Origin: Amphiscolops sp. MND2022
Taxonomy: Eukaryota
Reading direction: 5' to 3'
DNA: 64,000 nucleotides
NCBI GenBank assembly: GCA_964187785.1
Contig: OZ076409.1
Coordinates: 53,322,001 to 53,386,000 of the forward strand
Below the pieces are notes generated by a model. That model had not been told where the DNA came from. It saw only the letters and a list, made by a program, of their open reading frames with translations, and did not search any database. The position numbers and the translations under genes were made by a program. The first letter of the stretch is position 1, and each line of letters opens with the position of its first letter. Positions 10,085 to 43,600 of the stretch are shown in pieces.

Positions 10085-10366
10085 ATTGTTTTCAAGGCAA
10101 TTCTTTCAGTGGAAGACTAAATCGAAACATGGGAAAATTATCTCTTATGTCGGAAGCAACATTGCGCCGTTGACGTTCTGAAGGGAAGTGACAAGTCTTT
10201 TTTTTTACGTTCATACTTCCTTTTACTGCATGCTACGTTCATACTTCCTCTTACTGCATAATCAATTCAATCATGTTGCTCCTGAGTTCTGTGAGGAAAT
10301 AGGTTTAGTGGTCGGTTGAATGGACAAAATGCTTTTTAAATTGAAACACTGTCAATTGAAACAGTG

Positions 10367-10864
10367 AACAAGCCGGGAACGGCCAAAGTCGACGCTATAT
10401 CTAAGGCTCAAAATTGTAAAAGGGGGGACCCTTTGGGCTTTGTGAAACTCCAATAAAATAGGAAAAAATTGGATGTAAAAAGGAAAAAAATTAAAGGGGG
10501 ACCATTGGGAGATTTTAAAAAAATTTCCGAAAAAAATTTTTAAAAATTTTCAAACAATGTGACAGTGCCGAAAATGTAAAAGGGGGGACCCTTTGGGATT
10601 TTTTGACATCCATTGTGTTGCAAAATGTTAAAAAAGTTGAAAGGGAGACCCTTTGGTGGAATCCAAAAAGCTTAAAAAAAGTCGCATAATGCCGAAAACA
10701 ATCCGAGTGAAAAAACGAGGGGATCCTATGTTATCGATGTTCTGGACGTCGATGTTTTTGTTGTGGACGAGGTTCTGACGTTTCGAGTATGCTTTGGACG
10801 TCCGTAGTTTAAGTTGATGATGACTGTAAGAGTCAGGATTTTCTTCGAAAACGCCGACTAAAAA
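10367..10864 (-). mobile_element. Helentron-associated (HINE/DINE-1-like) non-autonomous element
   Basis: Ends AACAAGCCGGGAACGGC...AGTCGACGCTATATCTAAGGCTC and ACGCCGACTAAAAA, with internal AAAGGGGGACCCTTTG subrepeats. Multiple related copies occur in the window. Confidence 0.8.
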
Positions 10865-13706: not shown

Positions 13707-14827
13707 AACAAGACGGGAACGTCTAAAGTCGGCGCTATATCTAAGGCTCAAAAGCGCAAAAGACATTTTTTAATTAAAAAACTTGAAATTTTCGATTTTT
13801 TTCTTTCAAAAAATGTCGCATAGTGCCGAAAATTGTAAAAGGGGGACCCTTTGAGCTTTATTAACATATATTCTGTCGCAAAATATCAAAAAACTCGAAA
13901 GGGGGACTCTTTTGAGACATTAAAAAATTTTCAAAAAAGTCGCACAGTACCGAAAAAAATTGAAAAGGGGGACCCTTTAGTCTCTTCTGGTTTTGTAGGT
14001 TACGTAAAAAAGGTTAAAAATGAAAGAGGGGGACCCTTTGCACTAAGTTTGCATTGGCGGGACTTGGCCTGAGTAGTTTTATCAGTTTCTGTAAAAAGTG
14101 GTACATACGCGATGAGGTCTGTGGTCTGACGAAAAAAAAAAGAAAAACAAGACGGGAACGTCTAAACTCGCCGCTATATCTAAGGCTCAAAAAGCGCAGA
14201 GTTTTCTAAATATGCCCAGGATGTTTTCATGAAAAGCTTTGAAAACACTTTCGAGACACCCAAAGTGTGCCTTTCATGCTCGATATGACTGGAAAATCAC
14301 TTTTCCCGACTGGAAACAAAAAAATTTTGAAAATTTTTTGGAAAAATTTTTTTGGAAAATTTTTTTTTGAAAAAAAACCTCGAAAACGTCGAATAGTGCC
14401 GAAAAATGAAAAGGGGGACCCTTTGAGCTTTATTAACATATATTCTGTTGCAAAATATCAGAAAACTCGAAAGGGGGACTCTTTTGAGACATTAAAAAAT
14501 TTTCAAAAAAGTCGCACAGTGCCGAAAAAAAATTGAAAGGGGGGACCCTTTGGAGTCTCCCGGTTTTGTAGGTTACGTAAAAAAGGTAAAAAACGAAAGG
14601 GGGGACCCTTTGCAGTAAGTTTGCATTGGTGGAACTTGGCCTGAGTGAACTTATCAGTTTCTGTAAAAAGTGGTACATACGCGATGAGCTCTGTGGTCTG
14701 ACGAAAAAAGAAAAAAAAACTAGCCACAGTAATAGTCGGGCTTTTTTCCTTAAAGGAAAAGGCGCCGACTAAAAACTAGCCACTGTAAGAGTCGGGCACT
14801 TTTCACTAGAAAAGCGCCGACTAAAAA
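13707..14827 (-). mobile_element. Two HINE/DINE-1-like elements, one (14146-14773) nested in the other
   Basis: Two AACAAGACGGGAACGTCTAAA ends (13707, 14146) and two GCGCCGACTAAAAA ends (~14775, 14827). The inner copy sits in the A-tract of the outer copy. Confidence 0.85.
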
Positions 14828-15283: not shown

Positions 15284-16796
15284 TAGTACGTTCCGAGAAC
15301 TTCAATCAATTAGAGCGTAGAAAACCTGAAATGAACGTCAAAAAAGCGTAAAACATTCGAAAAGGAGATTGCAAGCATGAACAAGCCGGGAACGGCCCAA
15401 GTCGGCGCCATATCTAAGGCTCAAAAATAACAAAAGTACTTCAAAGTGTCAAGTATTCTCTTCTACAGTACCCGTTGGAGGCAAAATTGAAAAAAATCCG
15501 ATTTTTTTGAAATTTTTTTGAAATCCGATTTTTTTTGAAAAATCAGATTTTTTGAAAAAATTTTGGTCATGGCGGGACTCGAACCCATGTCATTCTGCTT
15601 GTCAGACCTCGAAAAAGCCGTAGTGGCTAAGTGGCAGTGAAGTAGTGTGACACAGTTTAGTTAGTGCCGGTTTAGTGCCAACTTATAAAATTTATAAAAT
15701 CTGTCAGTTCGTTGGTCTTTAAAAAAAGTCACTACTATAGTCTGCGTTTTTCTTCGAAAAGCGCCGACTAAAAAAGGAAACCGTTGTAGTGACGATTTGG
15801 CAGCTGCTTCGTTTCAATTCAAAGACAACAGTTAAAACTTTTCTTTGCGTGCAATATCTCAGATCTTTGGAAAATTTTATGCAACAGTTTATGGAATTTT
15901 TTCAAGGCGAATTCAAGGTACCCGAACCGCAAAAATACAACAAGCCTGGTCCAGAAACAGCTAAAGATAGCAGGGAAATGCGTAAAATTATCAGAAGGTT
16001 GCAATTTAACCCTCAGAACACTCTCAAATTTTTGAAATTGAAACTAATTACCTCAAAAGTCGAGGGCGTCCTTACACTGAAATTTGAAAACTAAAGATTT
16101 CCATAGACGACTAGCCATTTAAGACGTTCTTACGAATTTGCAAAAGAAAAAAAGTACACTAAGTAAAAACATTTTTTTCACTGGCCTCGGCTTAATTTTT
16201 GGGTCGAGTGTTTCTTCCAGCTTAGGAAAACGTCAAAAAGACGAAACTTTATATTAATAGACAAAATGGGCGAGATGAAAAAAGGAAAAAAGCTATTAAA
16301 CTTGCAGGAGTACAAATTCAGGTTTTAATCACAGGCTGGGGTTGCCTTCCTGGTTAGGGTTTTTGTTTTTTGGAACTTTTCGAAGTCAATATTGCCAACT
16401 TTTGAATCCCAAGTATCGAAATTATGTATCCATTCGGTAAAAGATTTGTATTCCAGCACGACAACGCTCCTCCCCACACAGCCCAAATATCAAAGACATG
16501 GTTTCAGCGAAAAGTATTCAAACAATCGATTGCCCTCCCTACATCCCCGATTTGTATCCAATCGAAAATGTTTGGGAATTTTCGAAGAAAAAATTGGCTC
16601 CTGACTGTCCCAATACCCCAACAGAACTGACTACGTATCTGCATAGATGGTGGTGTGAATTAGAAAATTTTTATACAGCCACTTGTTTACTGAATGATAT
16701 GAAGATGCGAGCGGTAATGTGATAAAAACTCCGGCGTTCGTGAATAAATTGTTCGTTCAATGCTTGTTAGTTGATTGAAGTTCTTGAAACGTACTA
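15284..16796 (+). mobile_element. Degenerate Tc1/mariner transposon with TA target duplication
   Basis: TIR TAGTACGTTCCGAGAACTTCAATCAA vs TTGATTGAAGTTCTTGAAACGTACTA, flanked by TA on both sides. Frameshifted transposase motifs FVFQHDNAPPHTA and PPYIPDLYPIENVW. Confidence 0.9.
15380..15775 (-). mobile_element. HINE/DINE-1-like element inserted in the Tc1 element
   Basis: AACAAGCCGGGAACGGCCCAAGTCGGCGCC ... AAAAGCGCCGACTAAAAA termini. Confidence 0.8.
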
Positions 16797-20400: not shown

Positions 20401-21073
20401 ATTTGCAGCTAAAATCTCAAGAATAGTCGAAAATGACGTTGTAAAACAGTTTTTAACTTTTTGTCCCATAAAAATGACGTAGTTATTCACAAAAATAAAA
20501 TTAGAATTGAAATATTTTTTAAAATGGACAATTTATTCTCAACATAACCCGAGCTTTTTAATTGTTCTAGAACAAACACTGGATATTGGAATATTTTACT
20601 ATCAGATCTACAAAAGCAGCTTACCTCAAGGAGACCTGCTATCACAAGCAAATGCTGCCAAGTATAGTATGATGGACAAGACTACTCTGCTTGAGAAAGT
20701 GAAAAGATACAAGAAGGTCCATCACTTCATTGAGAACGCCCCGGTGGTAGCGACATTAACGATGGTGTCTTTAACAGCCTCTACTGGGCTCGTCATTCTC
20801 ATAGTTCTTTCGACAGTTCTGATAATAGGCAAACAGGGCCTACGAATAACGTTGATTTTGTTTGTTGGATCTCTGATTGAGTTTCTCATGAGTTCCATGA
20901 CATACATTCTTCTGCTCAAATCTTTAGTTGAATGTGCATTTATTGAGAAAGAGCTGGGATTCAACTATTCACTTTTCTGGTTCATGAATTCCATTGCAGC
21001 TATCTTGACTGTGTTAAATATGGTCAACGTTCTTTTGGTTCCAACAGATATCGATGAGGACGAAACTTGCTGA
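17406..21073 (+). CDS. Two-exon four-TM protein of the clarin/claudin/PMP22 superfamily (join 17406-17625, 20571-21073; ~240 aa)
   Basis: Exon 1 ends CACAG|GTAAAC (phase 1) and the acceptor TTGTTCTAG|AA at 20570 is phase 1, so the frame is restored. Protein: TM1 ..FFIAVFLGTNF, loop with DIGIFYY, two more hydrophobic helices, then GFNYSLFWF..ILTVLN before an acidic tail. Confidence 0.65.
18797..19578. mobile_element. Solo-LTR-like segment flanked by a ~155-bp direct repeat
   Basis: Begins TGTAACG, ends CGTTACA, TATA-like CTATAAAA near 19435. GTCATCTTGCTTTTACTTTCAGGATCACCGCTC... is repeated at ~18650-18797 and ~19579-19730. Confidence 0.4.
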
Positions 21074-22390: not shown

Positions 22391-22890
22391 TTTTAGTAGG
22401 CGCATTTTAGTAGAAAATGAGCCCGACTAATACAGTGGAAAGCTTTTTTTCGTCAGATAACAGAATGTATGCGTAGTGGCAAGCTTCTTTTTCGTCAGAT
22501 AACAGAATGTATGCGTAGTGGACACTTTTTACAGAACTACTAAACTACTGGACCGGCAAGCGGAAACGCATCTAACTTAGTGCAAAGGGCCCCCCTTTCA
22601 TTTATTCCATTTTTAACGTAGGATCCAAAACCGGACGAGATTAAAGGGTCCCCCTTTTGAATTTTTTCGACACTGTGCAACTTGAATTTTTTGCCCCCTT
22701 CGATTTTGTTGAATTTCCCCTTCGCAATATCCGGAGTAAAGTGTTACTTTTGACGTTATATCCGAACTATTTTGCGTTTTAGTAAGGAGGCCGTGGCTCA
22801 GAAGCAGTAGTTTTCTAGGAAAATTCCTACACATATTTTTAACACTGCGCTTTCTGATATATTGCGCCGACATTACGCTAGCATACAATT
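22391..22890 (+). mobile_element. Degenerate HINE/DINE-1-like element with an internal ~43-bp duplication
   Basis: TTTTAGTAGGCGC...GCCCGACT 5' end, AAGGGTCCCCC motifs, GCGCCGAC near 22865. Confidence 0.55.
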
Positions 22891-24289: not shown

Positions 24290-24589
24290 TTCTTTACATG
24301 AAGTTGCTAAGTGGGATGTGTGCTGCTTTTTATAGTTGGTTACTTTTGGTGGTGATGGTATTAACAACTTAGTAAAAAGCGGCTAAGAGACAGGCTAGGT
24401 AGCTAACTTTATTACAACTAGTTCGAGGTGGTAGAAGTAGAACAAAAGGGAAGTCAACCAAATACTGATTATTAGTTTTCTCTCTCTGAGGGAGTACAGA
24501 CTTACAGTCATTCAATAATAAATAAATGTACATTCTAGAACATTCTATAAACATCTAAATACTATTGGGTTTTAATGTAGGTCAGTACA
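24290..24589 (-). repeat. Putative 3' LTR remnant (U3) of the giant Gypsy element
   Basis: Starts TGTACTGACC right after a purine-rich tract and has TATAAAAAG at ~24326-24334 on the - strand. No matching 5' copy found. Confidence 0.45.
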
Positions 24590-25631
24590 TCCATCCCGGT
24601 TTTTAAATGAAACAAAATTTTAAAGTAGCATCATTAATAAAAATGAAGTAAAGAGAAAAAATTTTGTTTAAATGTTCTTAGCGTTTCAGCTAGTTAACAT
24701 TTTTCATTTGATGGATGATTGGCATAGGTCTCTCTAAGAGTGGTGTAAGTTCGACTCATTGGTATACCTCGAATTGTCAAAATTTTGATTGACACCTCGT
24801 AGGTGCGACTACAGTTCAAAAAGCGTCAAAGTGTTCTTTTTCACTATGCTTTCGTCGGCTTGTTTTTTGAACTGGTAGTTGCTCAATTTTTTGCCTCTGT
24901 TGAAGTCGTTGAATGAACTTCGCATTGAACAAACGTGAGCAAACATCATACGAGTTAAAGGTCAAAGAGTCATTGAAAAAATTTTGATGATAAGATTTTT
25001 TCATTGAGTGTGAAAACTGTCTGAAAAGATATCAGGTTGTGATCAACTTTGGCGGGTTTGTCATGTAACAAATGTTGAAAACTTTGAAAATTTGGGTCTG
25101 TCATTATTCGAATCTGATTTGAACAATGTGCTTGATCTATTTTTGAACTTGTTTTGTTGAAATGTTGAAAAGATTTGTGGTTAACATATTGAATTTTGGA
25201 TAGGATAGCACCGAAAAATAATAATTATTAATTATTCTTTAAAAATAAAGCAAATAAATATCGGTAAGGGTGTAAAGTAAATGATTTTGAGGGCAAATAA
25301 ATATGGGTGGGAAAGAATTTTGAAATAAATACATTGCAAGTGTTTTCGGTATGAGTTTGAACCTTTTGAATATTATCATGCACAATGTTTTTTCTTTGAG
25401 TTTCTTTTATTATTGATTATTAATCATCTTCTTCGGCTGAGAACTGGATAGCTGAAGATTGAAGATTGGAAGATGGATGAAGATGGGTCAGCTGTTGGGC
25501 GGCTGTGAAGTTGTGAAGAATGGGTGCTGAGTTGTGACCAGCAATCGTTGTGGATGTTTGGATTGGAAGATGGGTTGTCATCTGAAGAGTGCTGTTGATG
25601 TCATTTGTTGATATCGAAAAGAGACGTAAGT

Positions 25632-26207
25632 TTACGTTTTGTATGGGGAATTATCATCTAGAAATGTTTCTGGAGGGTCCTTTTGACATCCTTCATCTGT
25701 ATCATCGTTATTGTCTGAAGGCCAATAGGAATCTAGGTTTTGTTTTTCCATTTCAGAACGCATTCTGTTAGATAGATTTCGTAATAAATGTTTGGGCTTG
25801 ATGGTAGTATGCTCTGTTTGGGTAGTGGCGTCTCGTTGGGTCGAATATGTATCAGGATGCTTATGAATTTGAAGATATTGGTCAAAGTTTATTCGTGTAA
25901 TTTGGAAGATTTGAAACATATTGAGCAAAATCATTCTTGTAAGATGAGGATCTGCCTTTTGATTTGTTTTGAGCTGTGCATTTAATGTTGTTAAAGGCTT
26001 TTTCAGAATCAGGGATCGCAATCGAGCTGAAGGAATTGAGAGAAGAGGAGCAATTGGGCAGTCGATGTCACTAGAATGGAGTGTCGTCATACTGAAGAAT
26101 ATGATAAAGTTTAATGAAAATTGTAAAGGATTTCGTTGGAATTCTTTTTGGATGGACGGCTTGAGAGGAGGAAGAAATGTTGATGAAGCAGTTGTGACGG
26201 TATTCAC
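25632..26207 (-). pseudogene. Retroelement accessory ORF (191 aa, Pro/Ser/Thr-rich, acidic end), function unknown
   Basis: Same strand and A/C-rich composition as the element. Begins exactly at a CTAAT...TTTTAG|G splice-acceptor-like site. Confidence 0.5.
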
Positions 26208-26612
26208 CTAAAATAGATTAGTTTGTTTACAATAAAGTTCTTTTTAAAATAGAGTTTCATAGTTGACATTTTTTCGATGTAGTTTGTTATGTTATAACTT
26301 TTTAATTTTAAGAATTAAGTTGATGTATTTTGGAAGTCTTTTGAAGGGTATTTAAATATCTTTCGTATAAGTGCTTATTTGTTAAAATCGGTCCGTTTAA
26401 AAGAGGAGCAAATGAGGAATTTTGTTAAAAATTTTTACATCGCGATTGAAATTTTTATATTATTTTGTTTTAAAAGAGTATTTTAATATCAAACAGGTAA
26501 TATAATCATGCAAAGCAGGCATATGCGTGTAGACTCGATTAATTTTGAGAGGTTGTTAAGAGATTAGGTGATAAGTGTTAACAATTTCAAATTATTATCC
26601 CATAATTACCAG

Positions 26613-27904
26613 TTAAGATCGGTGCATTTTTTCAATTGTATAGTTGAATTCGTCCAAAGATGTGCGAATACACAAAGCTGATTGGCTAATTCTTGTCGTA
26701 TCAAATACGATATTTTGTATTATGCTTCGAGCTTGTTCAAGAGTATTTACGATTTCGGCGATTGTTATAAGAATATCTCGGTTCGGATGATGATAAGGTT
26801 TTATGATGTTCAAAATTTCTGTATATTTCTGTATTTCGTCCGTTGGGCGAAAACTTTGTGGTTGAGGAATGTCATTTTTGGTTTTCTTTGGCGATTCTTG
26901 TTTTGTCTTTTTGTGTTCTTTAGTATTTCCATTTGTAAGAAGTGAAAGTAAATGAGAAATAATGAAAATTAATTCATTATTTGAATATCCTTTTTTGGTC
27001 ATTGCGTAAAAATAGGATTTTTCACAGTCTCCCAGAGGTTATATATGAGAGAGGCTATATGTTGAAGTGGAGGAAGAGGATCAGATATATTTTGAGGTAT
27101 ATCTTCCTGTAGTAGCGAATCGTCGTTCAGAATGAGGTACAATGATTGGTCTTTTTGGGTTATCATTTTGAAGGAAAAGAAAACTTTGTTTAAGCGGATC
27201 ATAATTTCTAAGTTTTCCTTTTGTTTTGGTATGATCTATCAAATATTCTGAGTTGAAAGTGAATGGCGACGTATATTTGGAGTTGAAGAATATATAATTA
27301 TCGGGCTCTTTGTATTGAAGAAACTTCTGATAAGTCATGTGATGAGCCTTTTTGATTTGGTATGGCAAAAAATTTGCGTCATTTTCTTCGGTTCGAAGAT
27401 CATATGGAGATGGTCTGAGGAAGTTGTATTGGAGTGAGAAAATTTTCACTTTTTTGTTGAAACCACCAAAATATATGGGGTAATCAATTTTGAAGCGATT
27501 GAAGTATGATAATCATTTTTAAATTCTCTGATGATGAATTTGTATTTTGTTGGAATCATGTATAACGAGGTTAAATGAGATTGAAAGGTAAATTGTTTTG
27601 ATGAGAGAATAGGAACTAATTCACAGTCTCTATCTTCATCTTGTTTAACTGGTTTTATGAAAGGAGGGCAAGCGCCAGATTCCATAAAAGGTTTGTCTGC
27701 AGTTATATCTGGATACTTTCTTTTTTGAGATCTTGCGTTAACATGATCTACTTGTTCAATAGGAATAGTTTCCATGGGATCTTGAGAATTTGAAGATGAA
27801 TTATCATCTTCGTTAACATTTTGTTGAATAGTTATATTCAAAGGGGATGCAAGCAATTCAGAAGGGTTAGAATTAACTACATTAATTTTGGGCAAGGATT
27901 CCAT
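26613..27904 (-). pseudogene. Retroelement accessory ORF, probably one ~430-aa frame broken by frameshifts, function unknown
   Basis: Four consecutive overlapping - strand ORFs (27446-27904, 27081-27449, 26999-27202, 26613-27002), the first starting at an ATG in AATAATGG context. Confidence 0.55.
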
Positions 27905-28401
27905 TATTTAGACTTGCGTGTTTTTGTAGAGCTAAAATAATGATTATAAAGTTTGATTATAATGTTTCTAATAATGAGGAAAAATTATGTTATTTCTTTT
28001 TTGTCCATTAAATTGTTTGTTAAAAATGAAGTTTAAATTGTACTTACACTATGAATATAACTGAGTCAATTGTGGGTTGAAAACATCAACAATCACAGTG
28101 GCATCTATTCCAGGAATAGAAAATTCTGTAATTTCGGTCTTTTAGATGGACTGAAGATCCAGTTGAAGTCTTCCGATTGAGTGTTGAGTTGTGATGGGCA
28201 AGTGAATTTTCAGTTGAGTTGAAAGGAGAGACTTGTCCAAGTGAGAATTTGGGTTTGAATGAAAGTTAAGCTGAGGAAAATTTTGTTGATGATTTTTTGA
28301 ACTTTTTCTGAGGTTAATTTGTTTTTTTTTGGTTATTGCAACTTTTTGTGAGGTTAATTTGTTTATTTGGTTATTGCTTTTTAGCTAAGAGGGATTAAAT
28401 T

Positions 28402-30969
28402 TTATAAAGACTTTAGCAGGACTTTCGGTTTAGCTCTTACATTTGATAATATTGGGTCATAGTCCTGTGAGTTAATATCGTTGACATTAGTTGGGTGTAA
28501 CTTTTGCGGTGATTGAAATGTTGAATTTTTACTGGAATATTTAGAAGGTAAATACGGGGAGTCATTATCAGAGTATCTTCTCAGTTTGTTGTGTAATTCT
28601 TTTTCCGGCAATAGGATATTATCATTTTCACTTGTTGTGATTTTGTGTTTAGTATATATCCGTTTTCGTTTTCCTGTATTGTTCAAATCGGTTATCATTT
28701 CCGATGTAACTATTTTAAAAAATCCATGGGCTATTGAACTCAAAATGGAAATGTTGCTTTGGAGATTATATTGTATGCTAATTGTTCTGTAGAATTTGAG
28801 TAAAAATGTTAAAACTTCTCTAATGAAAAGAAATGTTGAAAAGTAAATTCCACCTTGTGTTAAAACATAACATGGATATCCAAAGAAATTAATGAATGCT
28901 TGACTGAACCAGTCAGGGTTGAAAAGTGGTAAGAGGCTTAACAGTGGTCATGTACTCCAATCCTTAAATGATTATAAGGATTATGTCTTGAGTAGGAATG
29001 TTTATCATTATGCACTGTGATGAAATCATAGCTTAATGATTTTCCAAGTAATTGAAGAGTTTGAAGAGTTGTATCTGAGTTTTTAGCGAATAATACTCTG
29101 TTCCAGAATCGATCTAATTCTGCATTTGAGTTTATACCGGCATCTTGGGTGGTAAATGTATTAGGAGTGATTGTTGTTTTAATTTGGGTAGGTTTAAACA
29201 TTTGTGGTGCTTCTCGTTTGAGTGGTTCTGGTGTTAACACATAAAAATCTCCGTCGTTAGAATCTGGGTCTAATTCGATTATATTTTGTGGGTTATTTCC
29301 ACATTCAATTGGTGTTGCATAGTTAAAAGTTTGTCTTGTTATAGGATCAACATACATTATAGTTTCTCTGTAGTGTATGGGAATTCTATCAAAGCATTTA
29401 TCTGCCTAGTATAGTGGTGATATAAAATGAGGGCAATCATACAGCCATGTTGTAGATCCTTCAACGTAGAGAAAGTTACTGCGATTTCCAGTTAAAAGAA
29501 AACCGGCTATTTGGGGATTCTTAACTGACATAGCTAAGATTGTTAACAATTGAGTTCTTTCCAGTTCACATATTGTATGAAGGGTGTTTAGTTCTTGTAC
29601 TGTCATGGATTTAAATACATGATTTATTGTGAAATCAATTTTTGTATTAATGTGGCATCATAGTCTAAAGTGGCGAAATTGTTTGATACATTCAATGCAG
29701 GGAATATATACCTTTTATTTGAGTCATCATTTTTTATGTTTCCACTAATTGTTTGATCAATTATTGAGTGTGGTTTTGGTTGTCCTGTGTTCATATCAAA
29801 ACCATCTAAGTATGTAACAAAGATGTCATCATATTGTGTTGAGAATAATGGTTCAGGTTTTCCACAAAAGGTTTGTGCAATTGGGTATATTTCAAATCGA
29901 GAAAGGCTTGGATTGCTTACTTTTGATTGTGGTGTTTTCACATTAGGATATCTTGTTCCTTGTATTCCTTCGGTTTGAAGTTTTTGTGTGATGTTTGAAG
30001 TTTCAATGAAGGTATCGGTTTCTATCCAATATCTATCTTTAATTCGTGTCATTCTACCAATGAATTCTTGAAGTTGAAATATGAGGCAAAATTTTTCATC
30101 AAACCATGTTAATGTATATGGAGTTTTTGTTGTTGGTTTACATAATCCGTCTGATTGATAGCACGGTAATACGTGTCCGTCATGTATTAATTGACTGTTT
30201 TTATCATCATAGTCTATTGCGGTGTTAACAATTCTAAGTTTCCAACTTTGTCGGGTAATTAAATGTTCTCGGTCGGCTCGGCATCTGGAGTATGTGTTTT
30301 GTGTAACATTAACTATCCAGTCGGGATAATTTTCATCCAATACGAAAGTTCCAATATGCCATGTGTTTAATTTTTTTGCTCTAAATGGTGTTTGAATTCG
30401 TTCAATTTTGTTTTGATAGTTACTATCGTCGAACAATGAGAAAGAGCTTTGTATATTGTAATTGTTTAGTTCTTCGCTATCAGTCGCGTTGAAGTAACTT
30501 ATCATGTTTTTGCAATCAAAAGGGTCTTATATTTTTGGAAGTTCTAATGTGTTCTGTCCCCATTGTAAACGATCATATCGTCTACTGGATGTGAATGTTT
30601 GTGAACACCAGACCTTTTCAGTCTTTATATATGCTTCGCATTTAAAGGCTTTTATGCTTTTGGCTTTTGCTCTAACGTAAACTGTTGCTTGGGTTTTTGT
30701 GTGTTGTATATCTGAGGGTGCTTGTTTACATGGTTCAACATTTAATGAACTGAATTGTCTTAAGTTGTTTTGTTTTGCACAATCATAATGGGAAACCATT
30801 AAGTTTAAAATGTTGGGGTCTTGGTCTGAAATATGATTTTCTGAATTGGTTGTGTCAACTTTAGGAACAGTTGAAGGGTGAACTAAAGAGTGAACTATGT
30901 GGATATATTTATGTATTTAACAACATATATTATGTATACTAGGTATAGGTTAAAGGTTATATGATCCAT
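28402..30969 (-). pseudogene. env: env-like class III viral fusion glycoprotein (chuvirus G-like), frameshifted
   Basis: ATG at 30969 with a hydrophobic leader. Motifs HYDC..C..A..C..C, CELERTQLLTILAM..NPQIAGFLL..G..FLYVEG...LYDCP and YVDPITR......IEC. Hydrophobic anchor at ~28800-28900 and a basic cytoplasmic tail. Confidence 0.8.
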
Positions 30970-30983
30970 GGTTAAAATATTGG

Positions 30984-32917
30984 TTAAAATATTGTTCTAT
31001 AATTAAGTCCTGAATAGGGATTAAAGAAGTGTTTATGTCCTGTTCTAATCTCAAGTAATTTTGCGTCACAAAGGTAAGAAATGGATGTGACTATGAATGG
31101 TGATGTGGTTGTTTTGTGTGCTACTCTTGTTGAAAGAGAGAATGGATGAGGTCCTAACGAGTTGAATGTGACTTCTACTTCAAATTTTAATGCGAGTTGT
31201 TGTTCTTGTAATCTTCGTAATTCTCTTTGTTTTCTTTGAGTTGATAGTGAACTATTGTTTATAAATCTTGCAGGTAAAACCGTGTATCGAGGATCTTCGT
31301 TAAGCGTACGAACAATTTTTGAATTAACACGGATGGGATATTCGTGAGGGTTTGGTGTTGGAGGTCTTGAGAAATCTTCTAAAAAATATTCAGGTAATTG
31401 TATAGAAGAGTTTGATGCTATTGAACTAGGTGAGTAAACTCGTGAAAAATTAGCTGCGCTATCTGATATAGTTACTGGGTCTTCAGAAAGAAGAGAAGCT
31501 GTTTCAAATCCTGATGTGATTTGAAATGGTAGTGATAAAGAAGATGGTATAGTGGGTTGAGATGAGGAAAGAGAAGAAGTGTCTACTCTGGGTTGGGCGT
31601 GCTGTCTAAGTAGTCTTGAGTTTGTACTTGAACTAGTTAAATATTGTAATTCTAGAAATTTTCTTTGTTGTTGAGATCGAAGGTTATAATTATGTCTTGG
31701 TACTCTAGTACTGGCAGTTGAGTCAGAATCTTTATCTTTGTGATATAAATCTGTTAAAGAAGAGGTAGTAGTTGAATGTACACGTTCTAATTCAAGTTTG
31801 GGATATATTTGAGAAAATGTGAATGAACTTAGTTCAGATGGTGAAGGAATTGGGTGTTGTTGTAATTTCTTCACTGGTGCCTTCAATGAAGGTTCGGGTA
31901 AGAATGGTATTGGAGTATAACTTGCTGATGGTAAGTTAAGGTCTTGTGGTAATGTAGGTAAAGGAGTTTTTCTTTTTGTTTTAGTTGCAGTTGGTACTTT
32001 ATGTGGACAAGAATTTATGTGTTGCAGAACTGAGCTGGGGTCAGGGATTTGAACGGAACGAGTGGTAGTAATTGGTGGAAGATGAGGTCTATTTAAAATA
32101 TTTGAAGTATCTTGTGTAGTTGGTGTTGTAAGTGTTTCATCATTAGAGTCAGTACTGGTGAACTTGTTTCTGAAAATACTAAATTTTGTGAAGTAGGTTG
32201 TGATTGAGATGTTATTACTAGTGTTTGAGTTTGGGTTATAGGTGTATTGGTGGGTGTTGCTGGTACTCTATCAGGAGTGTATGGAGCGGATGGACTGGGG
32301 TTTGAGGATGAGGAATCCAGTATGTCTGTATCTGAGTTTAAATATGCTGTATATTCAGGTAAAATTTGGAGTGAGTGTGTTGAACTAGAAGATGAACTAT
32401 TTGTGGTTGATGATGGTGAATGAATATGTCTATCAATTTTGAAATCTTTTGTGTTATGGTAGTTTGCTTCAAATTGTAAGTTAGTTAGTTTTATATCAAC
32501 TAGAGTTTCTTTCTTTTTTTATCACTTGTGAAATATTTTTTCATTCAATTTCACATTAAGTTTCAAACTTTCTTTCTTTCTTTCAAATTGTCTTTCTTTC
32601 TTTATTTCAGCAGGATTTTTGAGAAAGCGAAATTATATCCTTTGCACCAAGGAAAAGTCGAAAGTCTTTTATTGTTCTTGGGCGGAAATTGTATCTATTA
32701 AAGGAGTGTCTTCGGGGGTTAATAAATTTATCATAGTCATGAATGTCTGATTGGTTATCTGATTTGGTATTTTGAGAATCTTGTTCCCTTTGTTGGTACG
32801 GAAATGAAGAATATTGGTTAAATGATTCTGGTTGTAAATCAATCGTGAATGGTATATCCGTTTCTTTATTAGATGTTGTGGAAGGAAATTGTTCTTCGTC
32901 TGTAAATATGCCTTCAT
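30984..32917 (-). pseudogene. Ser/Thr/Pro-rich low-complexity region downstream of integrase
   Basis: 300-aa ORF 30984-31886 containing PRHNYNLRSQ and S/P-rich runs, with similar composition continuing to ~32900. Confidence 0.55.
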
Positions 32918-32949
32918 CAGAGTTAATTATTTGATCGTTTATATTTGAA

Positions 32950-35900
32950 TGACAGTCATTAAATAAATGAGGGTTATATTGTTGTAGAAAAGGGAAGATA
33001 ACTGGTTCTTTTAGATGATAAGGAATTAAATGATTTCTATGTATGTGCGATGTATAACCATCTTGATTAACAATTTCATGTTATGTCGGAGATTTTGTTA
33101 ATAATTTTGAATGGGCCAATTCTAAGAGGTTTTAATTTATCGGAAAAATGAACATGGAGAAAATTTCTCTTTAGTACAAATGTACCAATATCTAAGGGTC
33201 TTGGATTGTGGTATGTTTTGTTAAAATAAGCATAAGAATTAATCTTTCTTTTTGTGTTTTCATATACCGTATGGTATATCTGTATCATAGCAGTTTCAGT
33301 AGCTAAGATCCATTGTGGAATTGGTTTAGATAAAATTTTATGAAAGAAAGGGTTTAGATTTGATTTGTCATAGTGTGTATGAAGTGGAAATTCTTGACAA
33401 AATTGAGAAGTACAATTTCTATATGTATCTCTTTGGAGATTGAGTTCAAAGTTGATTGGAATTCTGGGTATAGTATGGAATACTATTTCATATGGAAATA
33501 AGTTTAATTCAGAGAGTAGTTGTGAATTATGTGCATAAGCATACATATGAACTTGAGTTGACCAATTTTCTGGAGTGTTATGTAAGAAAAGTCTGAGATG
33601 AGTTCCAAGATTTCTGTTTTGATTTTCAACTAAACCATTAGTCCATGGTGCATAAGGAGTTCTTGGTTAATGTCTAATTCCCATTGTGGTACAAAGGTAT
33701 GCGAATTTGGAATTAATGTAATCTGTTCCACGGTCGGTAACTAGGTATACAGGAGGTCCAAATTTTGTTATCCAACGATGAAGTAAGGAGTTAACAGCGT
33801 TCTGAGCAATATTTTGTTTTTGAGGTACTGTTACTACAAAGTGACTAAAAGCGTCTACTATAACATGAATGTATGAGTTTTGATTTGATGGTGGGTTTAT
33901 AGGTCCTTTTGTATCCCTCGATATTCGGTAGTTGAAATATGAAGCATTTTCTGAAAATGTTTGTATGGATGCAGTTTGTATTTTTTGGTTAATATGTTTA
34001 TTTTGTTGACATTCAATACAATCATGGATGAATATTGACATCCATTTATTCAAATATGGTATGAAGTAAAATTGGTTAAAAGCTTTGATGGACATTTTTA
34101 TTCCTGAGTGTCCGTGAGCATGAAGTTTGTTACAAGCTGCATGGAAGAGTTCAAATGGTAAACATATTTTGTCTTTTTGATTCGGATTTGAATCGTGAAG
34201 ATTAGGATAATCTATGTGAATAATTTTTGTATCATGGTTAATATACAATTGGTTGAAAATTTTGTAATATACTAATAAGAAAGAATTTCCTGCAATTGTT
34301 GCGTCTATTTGTAAGGGTCTTTCATTATTAAGTACCCATTGGTAAACTTTTTGTAAAACAGTGTCTTGTTGTTGTTGAGTTTTTATTGTTTCAATTGTTG
34401 TTTGTGTATCTTCTGGTAGGAACAACTAATTAAAGTATCTTTTGTATTTGAAGAAAGATGGATCAAAAATTGGAACTTGTTGATTACAATAATCGGATTT
34501 GGTAAGATATTGTATAGCAAGTGTGTGTTCTTTTAATGTGTCTGCGTTTTGATGTTGGATATTATTTGATTGAGTTAGTTCATCGTCATCACTGAGAATG
34601 TCAGTATCATTGGGAATTTTCGATTGTTGTAAGAGAGATTTTGTTTGGTTTTTTGTAGGTTTTTTATATTTTGATTCAAATGGAACGATAGATTGAAAAG
34701 AGAAAGAATCTAAAGGTTTTATGTGAATATCTTCTCCTTTGTTATTTATACGGATAGAAAATTGGTCGTCTCCGTAGTCAGCAAGAATAGGATGACAATC
34801 ATTCTTTTGATTATAATTGATTTCTTCATGTTTTACTAAATATTGTACTGGTTTGAGTTGATTATATTTCATGATAGAGAAATCTATTTGAGGTGGTAAT
34901 TGTTTGTGTCGTAATTGATGTACTTGTAATTGTTCTTTTGTAAAAGTTCGTGAAAGCATCTCTGCTACAGTTAAGTTTTTTCCAGGGGTATGAATGATTT
35001 TCAGTTTGGAGAAGTTGGTTAATTGCATTTGTGCTCTATAGAATCTAGGACTAAGATTTCCTTTCTTTGCAAAATAATGTAGTAGAGGTTTGTGATCTGT
35101 AAATATGTATATGGGATAAGGAGATCCAATGATCAAAAATTCATATATTTGTAATGCGTAAACTATTGCGAGAAGTTCTCTGTCTAAAGTTTAAAGTTTT
35201 TGTTCTTGTGTGTTAAGAATTCTGGAGTTATAAAAAATTACTTTCATTTTATTTTCTTCGTTCATTTGGAATAAGACTGCGCCTAAACCAACTAACGAAG
35301 CGTCTACTGTTATGAAAAATGGATGCGTTGTATTGGGTATGGTTAATTCAGTGCCTGCTGTCATTGCATTTTTTACATTTTGAAATATTTTTTCTAATTC
35401 AGGTGTCCATTCGAATTTAACATCATTATGTAGTAATGTATACAATGGTTCAAGGTTTATATGAAGTTTTTCAATGAATTTTGAATAGAAGTTAACACTG
35501 CCAAGAAATTGCATAACATCTTTCTTTTCTTTTGGTGATGGAATTCTTTTAATGGCGTCACTTTTGGATGGAATTGGTTTGATTGTGTTATTACTAATTT
35601 CGTGTCCAAGGAATTTTACTTTGAGTAACATGTAGAAAGATTTTTCGGGTGCGAGTTTGAGGTTTTTTCGAGATGCTATTTTATGTAATTCTTTTATAGG
35701 TTCAAACATTTCTTGTTTTTCATTTGAGAGTAGTAAAATATCATCTATATACACTAACGCAGAACGTTTGTCTATAAGTGACCTAAAGAAAGTTGACATT
35801 TGTTTTGTGAAAAAGTTTGGAAGTCCCTTTAATCCGTAAAATCCACGGATTAAGGCGTATAGTTTGTCACCGGATGAAAATCCTGTAAGCTTGATTGTTT

Positions 35901-37400
35901 CTTCATCTAATGGTGTATGAGCAAAGGCATACATTAAATCAATGGTTGATTTATATTTTTTTTGGCTCTAGCTAATTGAGGAGCTAAAAATTCAATAGGC
36001 CAAGATTCAAGTTCTTGGTTGGTGTTTGAGTTTAAATGTCTTGCGTCTAAGACAACTTTTATTGCGTCTCCTTTGGGGATAATAATTAAAGGGTTTAAAA
36101 ATGTTGTTCCAATTGTGTGTTTTTCATCTGAGGTGGAACCAGTTTGTTTTATTATATTGTATTTTTCAAGTTCTAGTAAAAGTTTATTTAGTCCATCTCT
36201 GTAGTGAATTGGTACTTTAGAAGGTCTTTGCGTTTGAAGTTTACATTTATCTTTTATTCTAATTCGAAAGGGAGTAGAAATTTTTCCTACGTCGTTCTTA
36301 TGTTTGGCGTAACAATTTCGATTATCAATCAAAATATTGCAGAGGTTTACATATTCTGTATCGGTTAGATCTGAGTATTCAAAGTTAAGCTTTTTTATGA
36401 ATTGTTGGTTTTCTGTAGAATATGGTAAAGGAGGAAAATCTTTTTGAATTTTATCGGAGGGTCGAAGATTTCCAGTAACAGAAGGTATAGGAAGTTTAAG
36501 TGTTTTGTCGTTGATTTCTATTTTGTTAATTTCTAATAGGGATTGTGGTGTTACCCTAGTACATAAGTTCATATCTGCATATGGATTTTGTTTAATTGGA
36601 GTTGTGGTATCAGGATGATACGCATGTATTACAGAGTGAATAAGTGAATTTACATCATTAACTCTACAGTGAGGAGGAGTTGTTTGAGTAATAGGGATTT
36701 CTATGTATCCAATGATTCCTCGTGGTAATGTAGCTGGGTAAGATGTAAAGTTTTGAATTATGGTTGCACAAGAGTCTTTGCTTTTTTCATTGACTATCAT
36801 ATCCAAGAAATGAAAGATATCTTTAAATTTTTGTAAGAAATATGTTTATGGGTTTGTTGGATAAATTTTTGTAATATCTTCAAGTTCAAAATGTAGATTT
36901 GAATAGTTTTTAATTGGGAAATGTAGGGTTTTTCCTGACCTGGGTTTAAAGTGAATTGGTTCTTTACATTTACTAGTATAAATGTAAGAAATATATGGGT
37001 AATCTTTTTCTGTAAATGTGGAAAATGTTGTTTTTGTTGAAAGATTTGGATGTTGTTCTATGTAAGCCATAATATTTTGTTGAAAATCAATATTTTGGAT
37101 GTGTTTTTTGAAAAAGGGTGTCCCACGAATGTTGTATTTGATATTGGCTACGGCGAAATCGATATTGAAGGATCGCGTTTGATGGTTTACTTCAGTAAAA
37201 CAGGTTATCGAAATATAGTGTATTATTGGTACTTCAGTTTGGTTTGCAACTGTAAGAGTTTTGGCTCTTTTGTTTTCAAGATTGTTTGGAACATTGATGT
37301 TTAATTGTTTGGAAATCACATGAAATGTTGGTAAATTCAAAACAGGTATGGATGCTCCAGTATCTAAGAGGAAAAAGAGTTTCTAATTTTGAAGGTAATA
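32950..37400 (-). pseudogene. pol: pol: protease, reverse transcriptase, RNase H, integrase
   Basis: LDTGAS (~37356-37367), GLKGLP and YIDD (~35740-35751), DAS..GLGAVL and TDHKPL, H..GH.G...C..CQ zinc finger, DTKGP / DAFS / TDRG catalytic core, and GPF motif. Confidence 0.95.
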
Positions 37401-37559
37401 TGTTATCATTTGTTTCAGAAGCATGAACATATAGTGGATAAAATCAACTATAAGGAGTAATTGTATTAGCGATTTCAGTTATTTGACAGGTGTGGATTTC
37501 AAATTTTGTACTATCATTGTCTTTTGTAGATTTAACGTCTACTTGATTTATTCTGTTTT

Positions 37560-40500
37560 GTTGTCGATTTCGTGAGGGTGTTCTAGATCGTGATCTTAAA
37601 TCTCTAGGTCTTGAAGGAGATCTATATGGATAATTATATCGTTTAAAGGAGTTTCCTTGTGATTGAGAACGAGATCTGTATCTTGAGCGGGAGTTATATC
37701 TGTAATTTGAGTTATTTCTGTATGGAGATCTATATAGAGATCTAGATGGAGTTCTTCGTTGATAATAATTATCAAATCGAGATCTATATGGACTTCGAGA
37801 TCGATTGTATTATCTTTGTCGAGAATTTGATCTATTGTTGTTTTGCGAATTTTCTCTACTATTGCTACGATGTCTATCATTATTTCTGTATCTATCGTTA
37901 TAGTAATTTTGATTATATTTGTTACGATTGTTATCTGAGGAGTAAATATTGGTATTGTCATTTCGAGTTTCTTGTGAGTTATCAGGTTTACTGCGAAAAT
38001 ATTGTACAAAAGATTGTTGAGGAGTTCGTGATCTTTGGTTCTTGTATTTTTGGTATTCATCATCACGTTGTTTTTGATAACAGTTTGAAATACTATGATT
38101 ATTTTTGTGACAATAGGAACAATATTTTTTAAGCTGGTTTGCTTTTGTTATTTGGGTCTCCAGATTGAGTAACCATTATATGATCTTCGTGTTCAAATTC
38201 TGTTTTGTTTGTATCATCTTCAAGCGATACTTTGTTTATTTCTATAGCTAAGTCGTTAGTTCTAATTTTTTCATTAGCAATTTCTTCAGAATCGACATGT
38301 CTAGCAAGTGTGTGAAATGGTATAGAAGGTTCACGTAATGTCGATACATGTTTAACTTGTCGTTTATGAGCAAAATTTTTTAGTTTTTTGGGTAATCCTT
38401 TTGTAAAGATTTCAATATTTTTGAGGTTTATGGTAGCTGCATTTTCATTGCACAATCCCTTTTTAACTAATTGTTGTACTCTAAGGGCGAAATGGAGTAC
38501 TGTTTCATGATCTTTTTTCATGAGTGACATAGCTTCTACTTGGGCGTAGTAAGCTGTTTTTTGAGAAGCAAATTGTTTTTTGAATAATTGTACGAAGGAG
38601 TTCCATCGTTGTTTATATGATATATGAAGGTTAGTATACCAATCGAGAGCTGTTCCAGTTAAAGAACATTGTATGTAAGCCATGCGTCTATTATGCCAGG
38701 ATTTGTATTTTATAGGATTATTCTAAGGTTCTTCACCTATGGCGAAGGTTAATCTAGCTTCGACTTGTTGTAGATATTCTTCTGGTGTATAAGAATGGTC
38801 TAAACTATCAAAAGGTTTCATAGGTTCTGATATTGAAGCGGACATGTTCATAAAAGTATCTTGTGGCATTGGTAAGTATTGGAGTGGAGGAGCTACTTGT
38901 TGTGTGAGTTGAGGAGGTATATGTTGAGTTGTATTTTGTGGTAATGGATTTGGATTTGGATTAGGATTTGGATTAGGATTTGGATACATTTGATACAAAG
39001 GATCAGTAGGTATATGTGTAAGTGGAGGGTTTTGAAGTCTTCTTTGAGAAGATTGTATGGTATGAGAACAAGAAGTTGAAGGATACGAAGTTCCTTGATT
39101 TTGAGAATATATATTACTCTGTGAAGTACTGGTTTGTGATAATTGTATGAAAGGGTTTTGTGTTAATGAATTCGTAATAAATTGAGAGTGATTTTGGTTG
39201 ATATTTGCATTAGTATTTGTATTTGATGGAGGATAAAAGTTATAATTGAATGGATCGTAATATTGATTGGAAATTTGTGGATTATCATTACAATTATTGT
39301 TTGAAGAAATTGATCTATCTGAGCGGAAAGCAGAAGGAATTGATGGAGGATCAAATCTAGGTCGAATAATGTATCTTGTAGAATCAGGAATAGTTCTTGT
39401 TGGAGATGCAACGTTAACAGAAGTCTTCTGAACATGAGATGTGGTTAGAGTATCTTCATGTAAGGTGTTATGAGTTTCGTCGTGTGTTATTTCATCCGTG
39501 TATGGAAGGTTGAATGTTATTTTGCGGTTTAGAGATGTATCTAAGTGAGATTGAGGATTATGTGTATTTTGTCTTTGATTTACAACTCTAGTTGGAACTC
39601 TAAAAGATTGAGTGTGTGTTGATGTTGATGTTCCGGCTTGTGATGCATTATGTGTTGAAATTGTAGATTCTTGAGTAGTAAACTCATTTGCATTGTTTTC
39701 AATGATCTGATTATCATCATTATAGTTTTCATTTTCATTTTGTTGTAGGAGTGTATTTTCATCATTGGTATTATCATCTTCAGTATAGTTATTAGTGTTA
39801 AAATTTGAGTTTTGTTGAACTTGAGAATTTTGTTCATAGTGATAAGGTCTATTGTCTGCAAATAGATCATTTTCTGTAATTAATAGAGGATCGGAACGTA
39901 TGTAATCTAAAGTTTGTTTTGTAATTAGTTGTTGTTTGTGGAAATAAGGATGTTCATTTTGTTCACTTATGATGAATGGTAAACATTCGTCAGCTGTAAA
40001 ATGATTTGGAAATGCTGTAAAAGCAGGCTGATCTTGTTGTGACCATAATAGTTGATAATTGAATCCGAAGTATTTTCTGAGGAATAGAGATAATACTTTG
40101 ATCTGAGGAATTGTTTGTTCATTTAATGTTAAGTCTTTGAAATAATGGTAGAGGAAATTTTGTATTCGTAATATATCAGTTTGTAACCAATGATGAGGAT
40201 TGTCTTCAGGATTAACTAATCTTTCAATAAATTCTACTTCGAAATTGTTTATATATCGTTCAAGTTCGTCGAGTGCATTTGGACTAAATTTTGGAGTTTC
40301 AAGTGCTAGGTTGTGCTCTTTCACATTGTTCAAAAAAGCGTGAAAAACTTGTTTAATAGGAACGTGGAGGTTTATTGGATTTGATGTTCTTCTGTATATA
40401 TGAGATGAGTTAGGTCTTTGTTGAGGAAAGGAGATTTGAAAAGCTGGGTATTCTGTAGTGATGGTTAGAAATTGTATCTAATATAGAAGAGGTATGTGTC

Positions 40501-40679
40501 CAAATGTTCTCTAATAAGAGGTATTGTTTCAATTGTATGAGGTTCATTTTCAAATGGGAGTAGTTGTGTATAATGAGAAATAATGTTTTGTAGGAATGGA
40601 TTAGTTCTAATTTTACAACTTTTGCATTTTTAATGACGGGAGTTTGAAAATGTAAAAGGGTTGTTGTTGAGGAGTTCAT
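37560..40679 (-). pseudogene. gag: gag with long N/Q/T-rich N-terminal region, capsid domain, CCHC knuckle and RS-rich tail
   Basis: YIQCSLTGTALDWY...WNSFVQLFKKQF...ETVLHFALRV capsid-like motifs. After a frameshift at ~38129 the frame reads CSYCHKNNHSISNC, then RSRSPYRSR...RSRSRTPSR. Confidence 0.85.
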
Positions 40680-43600
40680 TTTTAGATATTATCTTTTATC
40701 ACTGTAAGCTTTTTTTCAAAGAGAATACTAAATAGAAATAACACACAAAACGTGTATGTTGTAATGAGCACTACTGTGGTAACTTTTTTTATCACATGTT
40801 ATAATATGAAGGTTAAAATGTTGAAAGTAATTTTTTATATAGATCCTATTAAGTTGGAGCTCTTGGGTAATGCCTTTGTTGATTTATGATGAAGAAAAAA
40901 AATTGTTGATATCGTTCAATTAATCTTTCAAAATCGTCTGATGTAGGGTTTTGAAGTGAGCTAATTAGAGGAATGTAAAAATTTAAAGAGTGAACTGTTT
41001 GGTTGTATATGTTAGAGTTCATATTAATTGTGTTCTAACAAGAATTTGAAGTTATTTGGGATGTTAATAGTTTTGGATAGAGAAGAAAGAAGCGGATGCA
41101 ATAGGATCTGTATTCAACCTCAAAGGTTTGCTAACAGAAACTAAGTGTGATTTTAAGTCTGGATCACTTTAAAGTGTCTAACATAAGGTTACTGACACGT
41201 CCAGAAAAGCTAAGGTTGTTTTAATTTTAAGTGGGTTGTGTGTTTTAGGACTATGGGAGTGGAGCTCTGAACAATTAACGTCCACTTTCCAAAGTCTGAT
41301 CAATACTGATCAAGATCAAAGTTTGATCTTTGTCTCTTTTACTTTTACTTTTACTTCCTAAGAATTTTGAAGATTCGAACGTAGTTCGGTGTCCTCTCGA
41401 TTCTCCTTAAGGACGTTTACACTTAACTAAGGTTTTTAGTCAGCCTTAGAATCAGATTGAGCTGGTGAAGCTGTCTGATTGTCTAAGTCTTATGGGAGGG
41501 GATAGGAATTGTGGGTGCCTGAAAGTAGAAAACTACTTTTACAGTGTCTGTGTTAGTTACATGCCTTACTTTAGTTTCATGTTTTAGACGTAAAAGAACG
41601 GATGATTGTTTTTTTACAGATTCAGTTAGAAAAAAATGGAAAACAGTCGTAGTTATCACAGACTCACACATTTTGATTGTTGGTCACTTTGAAAGTGTAT
41701 CCGAGTCAAAAATCGTACCAATACAATATGTAAAAAATTCAACTTCCGTCTAGGTGTGCAAAGTGGAAATTGGTCAAAGTGTGTAATTTTATAAAGTGTA
41801 AGTTAGTCACTAGCAGCTTTTTAATCACCATGCGTAACGCCAAATGACATGGTGTAACGAGAAAACATGTAACGTTTTAATTTAATTCCTACAGCCTTTC
41901 TATTGGCTTGCTTCCTGGCAAGATACGATAAAGACCGGAAAATTGTCAGCAATTATTTTCAACCCAATTTTTTTGCGAAATAGACGTTTGTTCGAAAATA
42001 TTTTTTCAAAATTCATCTTGAAAAGAAACAAGTTAAACAATGGTTTGATGCCAAAATCCACGCTAACAGGCTATTTCGTGAAAGTCATCATTTTAAGGAA
42101 AAAACGAACAATGACGAAAGCTAAAGTAGGACCATTCAAGTTGGAAAATGGTTTTTCCTAACTGAAAGAAGTCATAAAATCAAGAACACTTTTGAGAAAG
42201 AAATGTTTGTCAGAAAAGTTGCTTACAGTTTCAATTACCAAACAGGTGACCTTTTATGCTCTGAAACAATTTTCTCTTATCTGAAACTAATAAACAACCC
42301 TCTAGTTAGGTCAGACATTATATCTTCGATTACATCTTTCCCTCAAAAACGGAAACATTTTCTTACAAAGTGATTGGAGGAAGCTGCAAAATTGGTTCAT
42401 CGTCCGAGACGAGCGCCCATCGCCACAGGTTCAATTTGCCTCCAGTGCAAAGTACGGTTGCAATACGTCTCGTGGGGTCGTGAGGAGGTACGGTACCACA
42501 CCAGTGGATTACTTACCAAACGGTCTTAGTTTGTGACTGCCTGCTATGAGTAACAGGAATCTTTCGGACACTCTAAGGATCACCGCTCAAATAGCTTCGA
42601 TCAACAGGGTCAAGGATAATGAAAATTTTCAATTCCAGGGTGAAAGTTAGCATAAGTTATTAATGCCAAAAGTAGCCCTCAAGCTAGAAAATACAGCAAT
42701 AAACAGTGATAATCCGTACATTCAGATGTTGAAACGGCAGACTACACAACTACAAGCTATAGCTCTAAGTACCAAACAAAAATATTCAGGCAAAAAGACT
42801 CATTCTGTGGTTTTCGGTACTACAGGTAACATTTTGTTAGAATACATCAAACCCGTAGGTTTAGCACCTGTAAACCGAGTCTCTTAGAGTTTCTATCAGT
42901 TCTCAGCTCCTGTTGGGATCTCTCGGTCTCTCGCTCTCACTTGGTCTGTTTTCGGCTTCATTATACATGCAAAATGGTGATGCAAAACAAACCCAATGCC
43001 ACGTCAAACGTCGGATTAGAACACAAATTCCTGCCACAATTTCAATTACATCATTGACTGTATATTAGAGGGTAACGTTACACCTGCGGCAACCACTATG
43101 CCGTGTAGAAACTACTTCCGTTTAGACAACAAAGAAATCTGAGAGCAATCTGTTTCAAGCAAACTCACTGGCTTCCAATACGAACCTGTCCTGAAATGAT
43201 GATAAATGAACAACTGCGTCATTATAATTATAGAAGCAAAGTTCGTTGAATTAGTTGCAGAAACGATAAAATCTTCAACCAAATGAATTCGAAAAAAATC
43301 CTGTTTAACAAGTAATGGAAATAGCGTCGCAATTAGGAAATTCAAAAAATCTTCCAGAGCAATTTGTAATCGTTCAAATTTTCAGGTGACAACTCTCAAC
43401 TTTGCCGTGATTTTTGTTGGTTTTAGAAAATTAGTACGGAAACGTCACGATTCCTGAACAGTTGGTCCTCGAATCTATGGTTTCAAACTGACTGGTCCGA
43501 AACAAAAGGTCATCAAAATAACAAATCATGTTCTGTGTTTTTGGCTATAATTTACAATGTGACTTTCTCCAGCAAGCTTTAGTTTTTGTTTTCTATTTTA

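Follow-up and report, generated by a model that had tools for sequence, protein, structure and literature searches.

The 64-kb stretch of DNA analysed here (the window) probably carries a dead copy of an 18-kb Ty3/Gypsy element whose intact sisters encode a predicted gB-type fusogen and three extra genes, and which are likely to spread from cell to cell in enveloped form. BLASTN comparison with six sister copies placed this copy, a member of family A, on the minus strand at positions 24319-41577, the interval to which the sisters align (one with an internal deletion and one with a different 5' end); GC skew delimits 24-42 kb of the window. Family A sisters are 18,326-18,469 bp long. Compared with them, the window copy is degenerate and 5'-truncated, being without the 5' LTR, the primer-binding site (PBS) and about 1 kb of leader, and the 5' LTR of the sisters lies about 1.3 kb further upstream than the window homology reaches. 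LTRs (TG...CA, about 240-270 bp), PBS (TGGTGCGAC), polypurine tract and 4-bp target-site duplications were all found in the sisters; the window copy keeps only the polypurine tract (24590-24604, minus strand, by sequence comparison) and a 3' LTR of about 270 bp with TG...CA ends (24319-24589, minus strand, by BLASTN against the sisters). Because this 3' LTR is only 87.6% identical to that of a young sister, we regard the window copy as an older dead insertion. The PBS TGGTGCGAC is common to families A-E; this primer type was not found in the PBS table of Chary & Hayashi (PMC13524379). No tRNA gene was found in the 64-kb window.

Reading along the minus strand, the remaining 5' leader (40680-41577, delimited by comparison with sisters) is followed by a broken gag-pol (32607-40679), located by its Pfam domains, with the ends set by comparison with relatives. 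In intact relatives gag-pol is a single ORF of about 2,650-2,700 aa (2,695 aa in L146), composed of an N-terminal domain of about 260 aa, a disordered linker, capsid, an RS-rich region and PR-RT-RH-IN with a GPF motif. Its Pfam matches were Retrotrans_gag, Ty3_capsid (E 1e-4, below the cut-off), RVT_1, RT_RNaseH, Integrase_H2C2, rve and SH3_Tf2-1, the best PDB match of pol was Ty3 RT (E 3e-37), the integrase carries a C-terminal GPY/F-type motif (LRIGPF), and the order PR-RT-RH-IN downstream of gag is that of the Metaviridae (Ty3/Gypsy). An earlier note on this DNA had placed the envelope gene in a Gypsy element, and these Pfam families and the Ty3 match bear it out. A BEL/Pao backbone was rejected, as the Pfam matches included no BEL/Pao-type gag or protease family and Gypsy-type families were matched instead. 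The N-terminal gag domain (window 39850-40679, minus strand) belongs to no known family; it is 40-45% identical across families A, B and C, has a dN/dS of 0.15 and is not present in families D and E. A 209-aa +1 frame inside the RS-rich part of gag (37596-38147, minus strand) was discarded as a compositional by-product, with a dN/dS of 2.2; stop-free frames of this kind arise in 3-44% of codon shuffles.

The envelope gene of the window (28385-30969, identified by motifs, Pfam and sister alignment) runs through five consecutive minus-strand frames from 30969 to about 28385, and the motif string for which the earlier note had singled it out was present there: HYDC...C...C...C in an ORF at 30527-30916, ICELERTQ...KNPQIAGFLLTGNRSNFLYVEGSTTWLYDC at 29406-29657 and YVDPITRQTFNYATPIEC at 28938-29405. 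The hydrophobic membrane anchor and the basic tail of roughly 100 aa that had been claimed with it were likewise found, at 28402-28947. The gene begins with an ATG at 30969; the stop at 28402 closes a frameshifted tail, and the gene of an intact sister aligns down to 28385. Relative to that sister (L005:1057-3633, 858 aa, 92.7% identical in DNA), the window gene has four single-base frameshifts, near 30904, 29655, 28943 and 28425, and two in-frame stops, at 30527-30529 and 29406-29408. The sisters thus carry an intact env ORF downstream of Gypsy pol, an arrangement expected of a gB-type errantivirus, and the window copy carries it broken. Natural sister ORFs were the material for all further protein work.

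The Pfam family PF24664 (Monjiviricetes_fusion) was matched by three of the five window fragments in the correct order (E 2.5e-4, 5e-3 and 7e-10) and by the intact sister protein with E 1.2e-23, with no second Pfam family at E<=1. PDB sequence searches with env, ORF2 and ORF4 gave no match. Although the AlphaFold model of env is poor (pLDDT 42, pTM 0.28), the structure searches proposed in the earlier note did retrieve class III glycoproteins. Among viral structures, 39 of the 50 listed matches were named glycoproteins (35 from RNA viruses, three herpes gB and one entomopox), the remainder being unnamed (8) or uncharacterised (3); they included chu-like, xinmo-, qin- and rhabdo-like G as well as herpes gB, at 9-15% identity and with TM-scores under 0.2. 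In the PDB, herpes gB occupied 34 of the 35 listed rows and GP64 the other. With so poor a model, the fold call is drawn from the local pattern together with Pfam, and on these two grounds the prediction that env is a class III (gB/Monjiviricetes-type) fusogen is well supported. With respect to the five-domain trimer, fusion loops and cysteine-bridge class of gB-type errantivirus env, the analysis gave conserved cysteines and a model of pLDDT 42. An F-type (class I) envelope was considered and rejected: only PF24664 was matched at E<=1, the env proteins of families A, B and C have no RxK/RR site, and none of the listed viral or PDB fold matches is named as an F protein, so that the baculovirus F or host protein that would have spoken against the earlier assignment did not appear as the best match. 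That assignment, to a chuvirus G or gB-like class III protein, holds for the class, given Pfam and the fold matches; its specifically chuviral part is not supported, because the fold matches span several virus groups at 9-15% identity and single out no chuvirus donor. As in Monjiviricetes G, herpesvirus gB and baculovirus GP64, we find the PF24664 match and the class III fold pattern; unlike them, this env shares only 9-15% identity with its viral counterparts, sits in a reverse-transcribing element and has a long low-complexity tail.

Six env families were recognized in the genome, namely A (to which the window copy belongs), B, B2 and C (54-63% identical to A), D (29%) and E (25%), each with intact env ORFs and Gypsy pol. 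At least three deeply separated env lineages (25-29% identical) are found in one genome, every one of them joined to a Gypsy pol. Elements of families A, B, B2 and C are 17.7-18.7 kb long and have a common five-ORF layout of gag-pol, ORF2, env, ORF4 and ORF5. In family D env follows pol directly and family E has other small ORFs, so ORF2 appears specific to the A/B/B2/C clade. LTR pairs were 99.3-100% identical in all ten copies checked; these copies are young.

An env profile search retrieved 2,852 related clusters, some interleaved with the families of this genome. In a quick env tree of 36 rows, none of them a labelled viral or errantivirus sequence, families A, B, B2 and C formed one strongly supported clade on a long branch, and D and E fell among unnamed outside proteins. 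The 20 outside relatives that were looked up had no informative protein name; env scans of metagenome contigs gave one weak locus, and those of viral contigs none. The tree and the profile matches fit an old and diverse association of env with pol, but single out no donor.

These data bear on the earlier note's proposal that this Gypsy lineage independently captured a chuvirus-type glycoprotein, which we consider improbable. It would agree with the chu-like virus G at the top of the viral fold matches, with the single long-branched A/B/B2/C clade and with the capture of chuvirus glycoproteins by BEL/Pao elements reported in mosquitoes (PMC10084718). However, the listed viral matches share only 9-15% identity with this env and span several groups, so that no donor stands out, some of the related env clusters interleave with our families, and families D and E carry a homologous env (25-29%) on a Gypsy pol with 48% identity in the RT-RH region. 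Moreover, according to Chary & Hayashi (eLife 2026, PMC13524379), HSV/gB-type envelopes are as abundant as F-type ones in Gypsy elements from cnidarians to insects; the statement that such captures are known mainly from BEL/Pao elements is therefore out of date. In that account, 114 Gypsy elements were recovered with chuvirus-like glycoproteins of mosquito BEL/Pao elements as baits, and the gB-type env is described as resembling Chuviridae glycoproteins and argued to be of ancient, Pre-Cambrian origin; earlier work on arthropods had not revealed any clear case of capture by Gypsy elements (PMC10084718). We conclude that the env-pol pairing is likely to be old rather than a private recent capture. 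The gB-type env in Gypsy is already published, and the window env alone adds little to it. The mosquito BEL/Pao element Anakin (Dezordi et al., PMC7642597, PMC10084718), as there described, likewise has a fusogen of this broad family in an LTR element, and differs in that the backbone here is Ty3/Gypsy and no close chuvirus donor is evident.

For family A env, at least 131 matches at 91-100% identity were scored; the 7,859 to 12,553 candidates of a first look were rejected as copy counts. In a random sample of 40 regions of 5 kb from the 13 largest contigs, 4 of the 40 contained matches and 1 contained env sequence. All families together made up 4.6% of the sampled bases (95% interval 0.1-11%) and family A 0.5% (0-1.4%), from which we estimate, with uncertainty and as no measured figure, a copy number of hundreds to a few thousand.

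Between pol and env lies ORF2 (30984-32320, minus strand, one frameshift in the window copy by comparison with sisters), a Ser/Pro/Thr-rich protein (410-445 aa) that bears an RYNLR motif and, at its C-terminus, a conserved domain of about 130 aa, and for which the other families are 35-44% identical to family A. Apart from one internal Met in a single C-type copy (L097), the ORF2 proteins of A, B, B2 and C are free of Met, and a literature search found no Met-free ORF placed straight before env in other retroelements. Similarity between families begins at a Leu-Asp pair, which all four encode as CTG GAT preceded by A at position -3; in the window the predicted CTG start is at 32318-32320 (minus strand; A at -3, G at +4). 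The site was present in 31 of 33 copies of these families, absent in one (L032, family A) and unread in one. Few Leu codons of these elements are CTG (1.4-4.3%), and upstream of the site the frame stays open for anything from 6 to 60 codons. From the pol stop to the env ATG there were 3-5 ATGs, compared with 10-12 expected from dinucleotides (11 stretches), and from the CTG onward 1-3, compared with 6.3-7.5 in codon shuffles (P 0.013, 0.002, 0.10 and 0.003; given the common ancestry of the four families, these values are not independent), with no significant depletion in family B (P 0.10). Depletion extends to out-of-frame ATGs as well; one to three out-of-frame AUGs persist before env, some in good context.

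The conservation of the CTG in four diverged families and the depletion of ATG up to the env AUG suggest that ORF2 is started at a CUG in a strong Kozak context, with leaky scanning to the env AUG, which is the most economical interpretation. A CUG start is also used for the glyco-Gag of MLV. This reading is less than certain because short upstream ORFs remain and because no strong acceptor upstream of the CTG is conserved in the four families; the 5' leaders yielded no donor motif either. Alternatively, ORF2 could receive its AUG from an upstream exon, for example by a gag-ORF2 splice fusion, with env on a separate spliced RNA and CTGGAT acting as an RNA or promoter element. In Drosophila errantiviruses env is as a rule expressed from spliced RNAs, Met is rare anyway in the disordered regions of these elements (6 in 1,207 aa), and in family A nucleotide-level conservation (dS 0.11) covers the 129 nt that precede the CTG. 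We nevertheless hold this arrangement to be unlikely, if far from negligible, as in family B2 the stretch from the last in-frame stop to the CTG contains no AG, the published acoel leader does not end in AUG, and ATGs are depleted out of frame as well.

Downstream of env, ORF4 (26613-27904, minus strand, broken in the window copy) was recognized by cross-family identity and dN/dS. It is 430-500 aa long in relatives, with a conserved core 40-45% identical across A, B and C. Its model (pLDDT 39.5) gave SH3/Tudor/KOW-like matches (best Z 6.1, rmsd 2.3 over 54 residues), by which the core is weakly predicted to be a barrel of this type, with scores in a range common to small barrels. ORF5 (25614-26090, minus strand, one stop in the window copy), recognized by dN/dS in family A and by sister alignment, has about 150-210 aa in relatives, belongs to no known family and shows weak similarity between A and B. 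ORF2, ORF4 and ORF5 had no Pfam or PDB match. In pairwise comparisons between natural copies, dN/dS was 0.08-0.12 for env between sister families, 0.10-0.18 for ORF2, 0.09-0.15 for ORF4 and 0.10 for ORF5 (family A only), similar to pol (0.08), with bootstrap upper limits of at most 0.23 for env and the three extra ORFs. Env, ORF2, ORF4 and ORF5 are therefore under purifying selection (0.09-0.18 for the three extra ORFs). The notion that they are functionless passengers amplified with gag-pol, to which the dead window copy and the missing Pfam and PDB matches of the extra ORFs might lend some colour, is largely refuted by these values of 0.08-0.18, as the by-product frame in gag scored 2.2 in the same test, and we give it hardly any credence.

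An intron is predicted between the ORF4 stop and ORF5 in all four families. In the window it spans 26208-26609 (minus strand), with a G|GTAAT donor and a CTAAT...TTTTAG acceptor. The donor, G|GTAA(T/G), lies 3, 12, 12 and 57 nt past the ORF4 stop in A, B, B2 and C, respectively, and such motifs occur 1-3 times per 16 kb; a TTT(T/C)AG acceptor precedes ORF5, with no ATG between the two. The predicted introns measure 309-577 nt and hold 1-10 ATGs. Ahead of ORF4 an acceptor was seen in two of the four families: the acceptor-like TTTTAG at 27932-27937 (minus strand), 28 nt before the ORF4 ATG, occurs in A and B2 and not in B or C.

Drosophila gypsy/ZAM and herpes gB serve as models for an env trimer that fuses the particle membrane with the target cell. 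By analogy, the env described here would form trimers in the membrane of the particle and bring about its fusion with a target cell, which could plausibly move the element from soma to germline. A subgenomic RNA, spliced or trans-spliced to a spliced leader, would begin downstream of pol. On this RNA a fraction of the ribosomes would initiate ORF2 at the conserved CUG, and the remainder would scan a nearly AUG-free 1.2-1.3 kb to the env AUG. Translation of ORF4 and ORF5 would depend on additional spliced RNAs, and excision of the conserved predicted intron would take away the AUGs upstream of ORF5. We lean towards the view that acoels harbour a recently active, complex-retrovirus-like Gypsy clade of 18-kb elements with a gB-type fusogen and three accessory genes, which may express env by leaky scanning past a CUG-started, AUG-free gene and rely on host splicing or trans-splicing downstream.

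The host is likely to be an acoel, since a Cys-loop receptor exon in the window (60333-60599) shares 85-86% identity with proteins of two acoels, Symsagittifera roscoffensis and Convolutriloba macropyga, and the genome contains 55 sites that match the 3' portion of the acoel spliced leader as published (control 0). This exon lies among exons of a Cys-loop ligand-gated ion channel gene at 59290-60659 (plus strand). The leader-motif sites are dispersed (including L149-L151) with several recurring 3' continuations, and could be leader genes or leader-capped retrocopies.

Our elements resemble the HSV/gB-type errantiviruses in having a Gypsy pol, the order GAG-POL-ENV, many near-identical copies and a gB-like class III env with a signal region, conserved cysteines and a membrane anchor but no furin-like site. 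They differ in their likely acoel host, in their three extra selected ORFs, predicted CUG-type start and conserved predicted intron, and in their size of about 18 kb with a pol-env gap of 1.3-1.7 kb, where the survey filters were a 1,000-nt gap and, for many groups, 10 kb (PMC13524379). The main text of that paper makes no mention of accessory genes, splicing, or CUG or non-AUG starts; Xenacoelomorpha are absent from its genome list, acoel names from its text and seven supplements, and our peptide motifs from supplement cells of up to 400 characters (PMC13524379). Literature searches found no report on errantiviruses in Xenacoelomorpha or on acoel gypsy LTR elements with an envelope. LTR elements with extra ORFs are described from bdelloid rotifers (PMC5408684), C. 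elegans (Cer1/CERV, PMC10309623) and plants (PMC7264820); together with MLV they offer retroelement parallels in accessory ORFs, spliced accessory RNAs or non-AUG starts. ORF2, ORF4 and ORF5, in contrast, are without similarity to any Pfam family. What sets these elements apart from the literature found is their likely acoel host, their length of 17.7-18.7 kb, their three accessory genes under selection and the way in which they are predicted to be expressed.

If correct, the complex Gypsy reading would extend env-carrying Gypsy elements to Xenacoelomorpha, and the likely acoel host fills an early-branching bilaterian gap in the test of whether env-Gypsy elements predate bilaterians. The accessory genes and the predicted CUG, leaky-scanning and splicing scheme also provide specific predictions on how gB-type errantiviruses express env, a point left open in the text of PMC13524379. 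Acoel genomes are dominated by LTR elements, according to accounts whose available text leaves envelopes unmentioned (PMC9911081, PMC6451197), and cell-to-cell spread may therefore contribute to this expansion.

Additional ORFs were noted in the more distant families. In family E, an ORF after env (L076:4135-5127, G000:C4) encodes a MATH/TRAF domain (Pfam E 1.4e-9) with a weak PAM2 motif and recurs in a second copy (L079); this env-bearing Gypsy element has probably captured a signalling domain from its host. Family E also has two small ORFs in the pol-env interval (L077:6632-7114 and 8400-8834), which were present in both copies read and had no Pfam match above noise. In family D, a 524-aa ORF after env (L074:4065-5636) has a long coiled-coil-like stretch and no Pfam match.

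Elsewhere in the window, a second Gypsy element, unrelated to the first, is represented by fragments of gag and protease at 51192-52537 (minus strand), and a 196-aa hydrophobic ORF at 20483-21073 (plus strand) gave a weak UNC-50 Pfam match (E 0.006, below the cut-off). Fragments at 6599-6883 (minus), 16441-16722 (plus) and 54746-56343 (minus) appear to resemble Tc1/mariner and hAT transposases. A 172-bp tandem repeat forms an array at 3590-4362 and 1228-1603, with diverged copies nearby. Short repeats sharing a palindromic, AAGGGGGACCCTTT-like core lie dispersed at 13837-14723, 22574-22667 and 46877-48290, and repeats with this core are also found beside other copies of the element.
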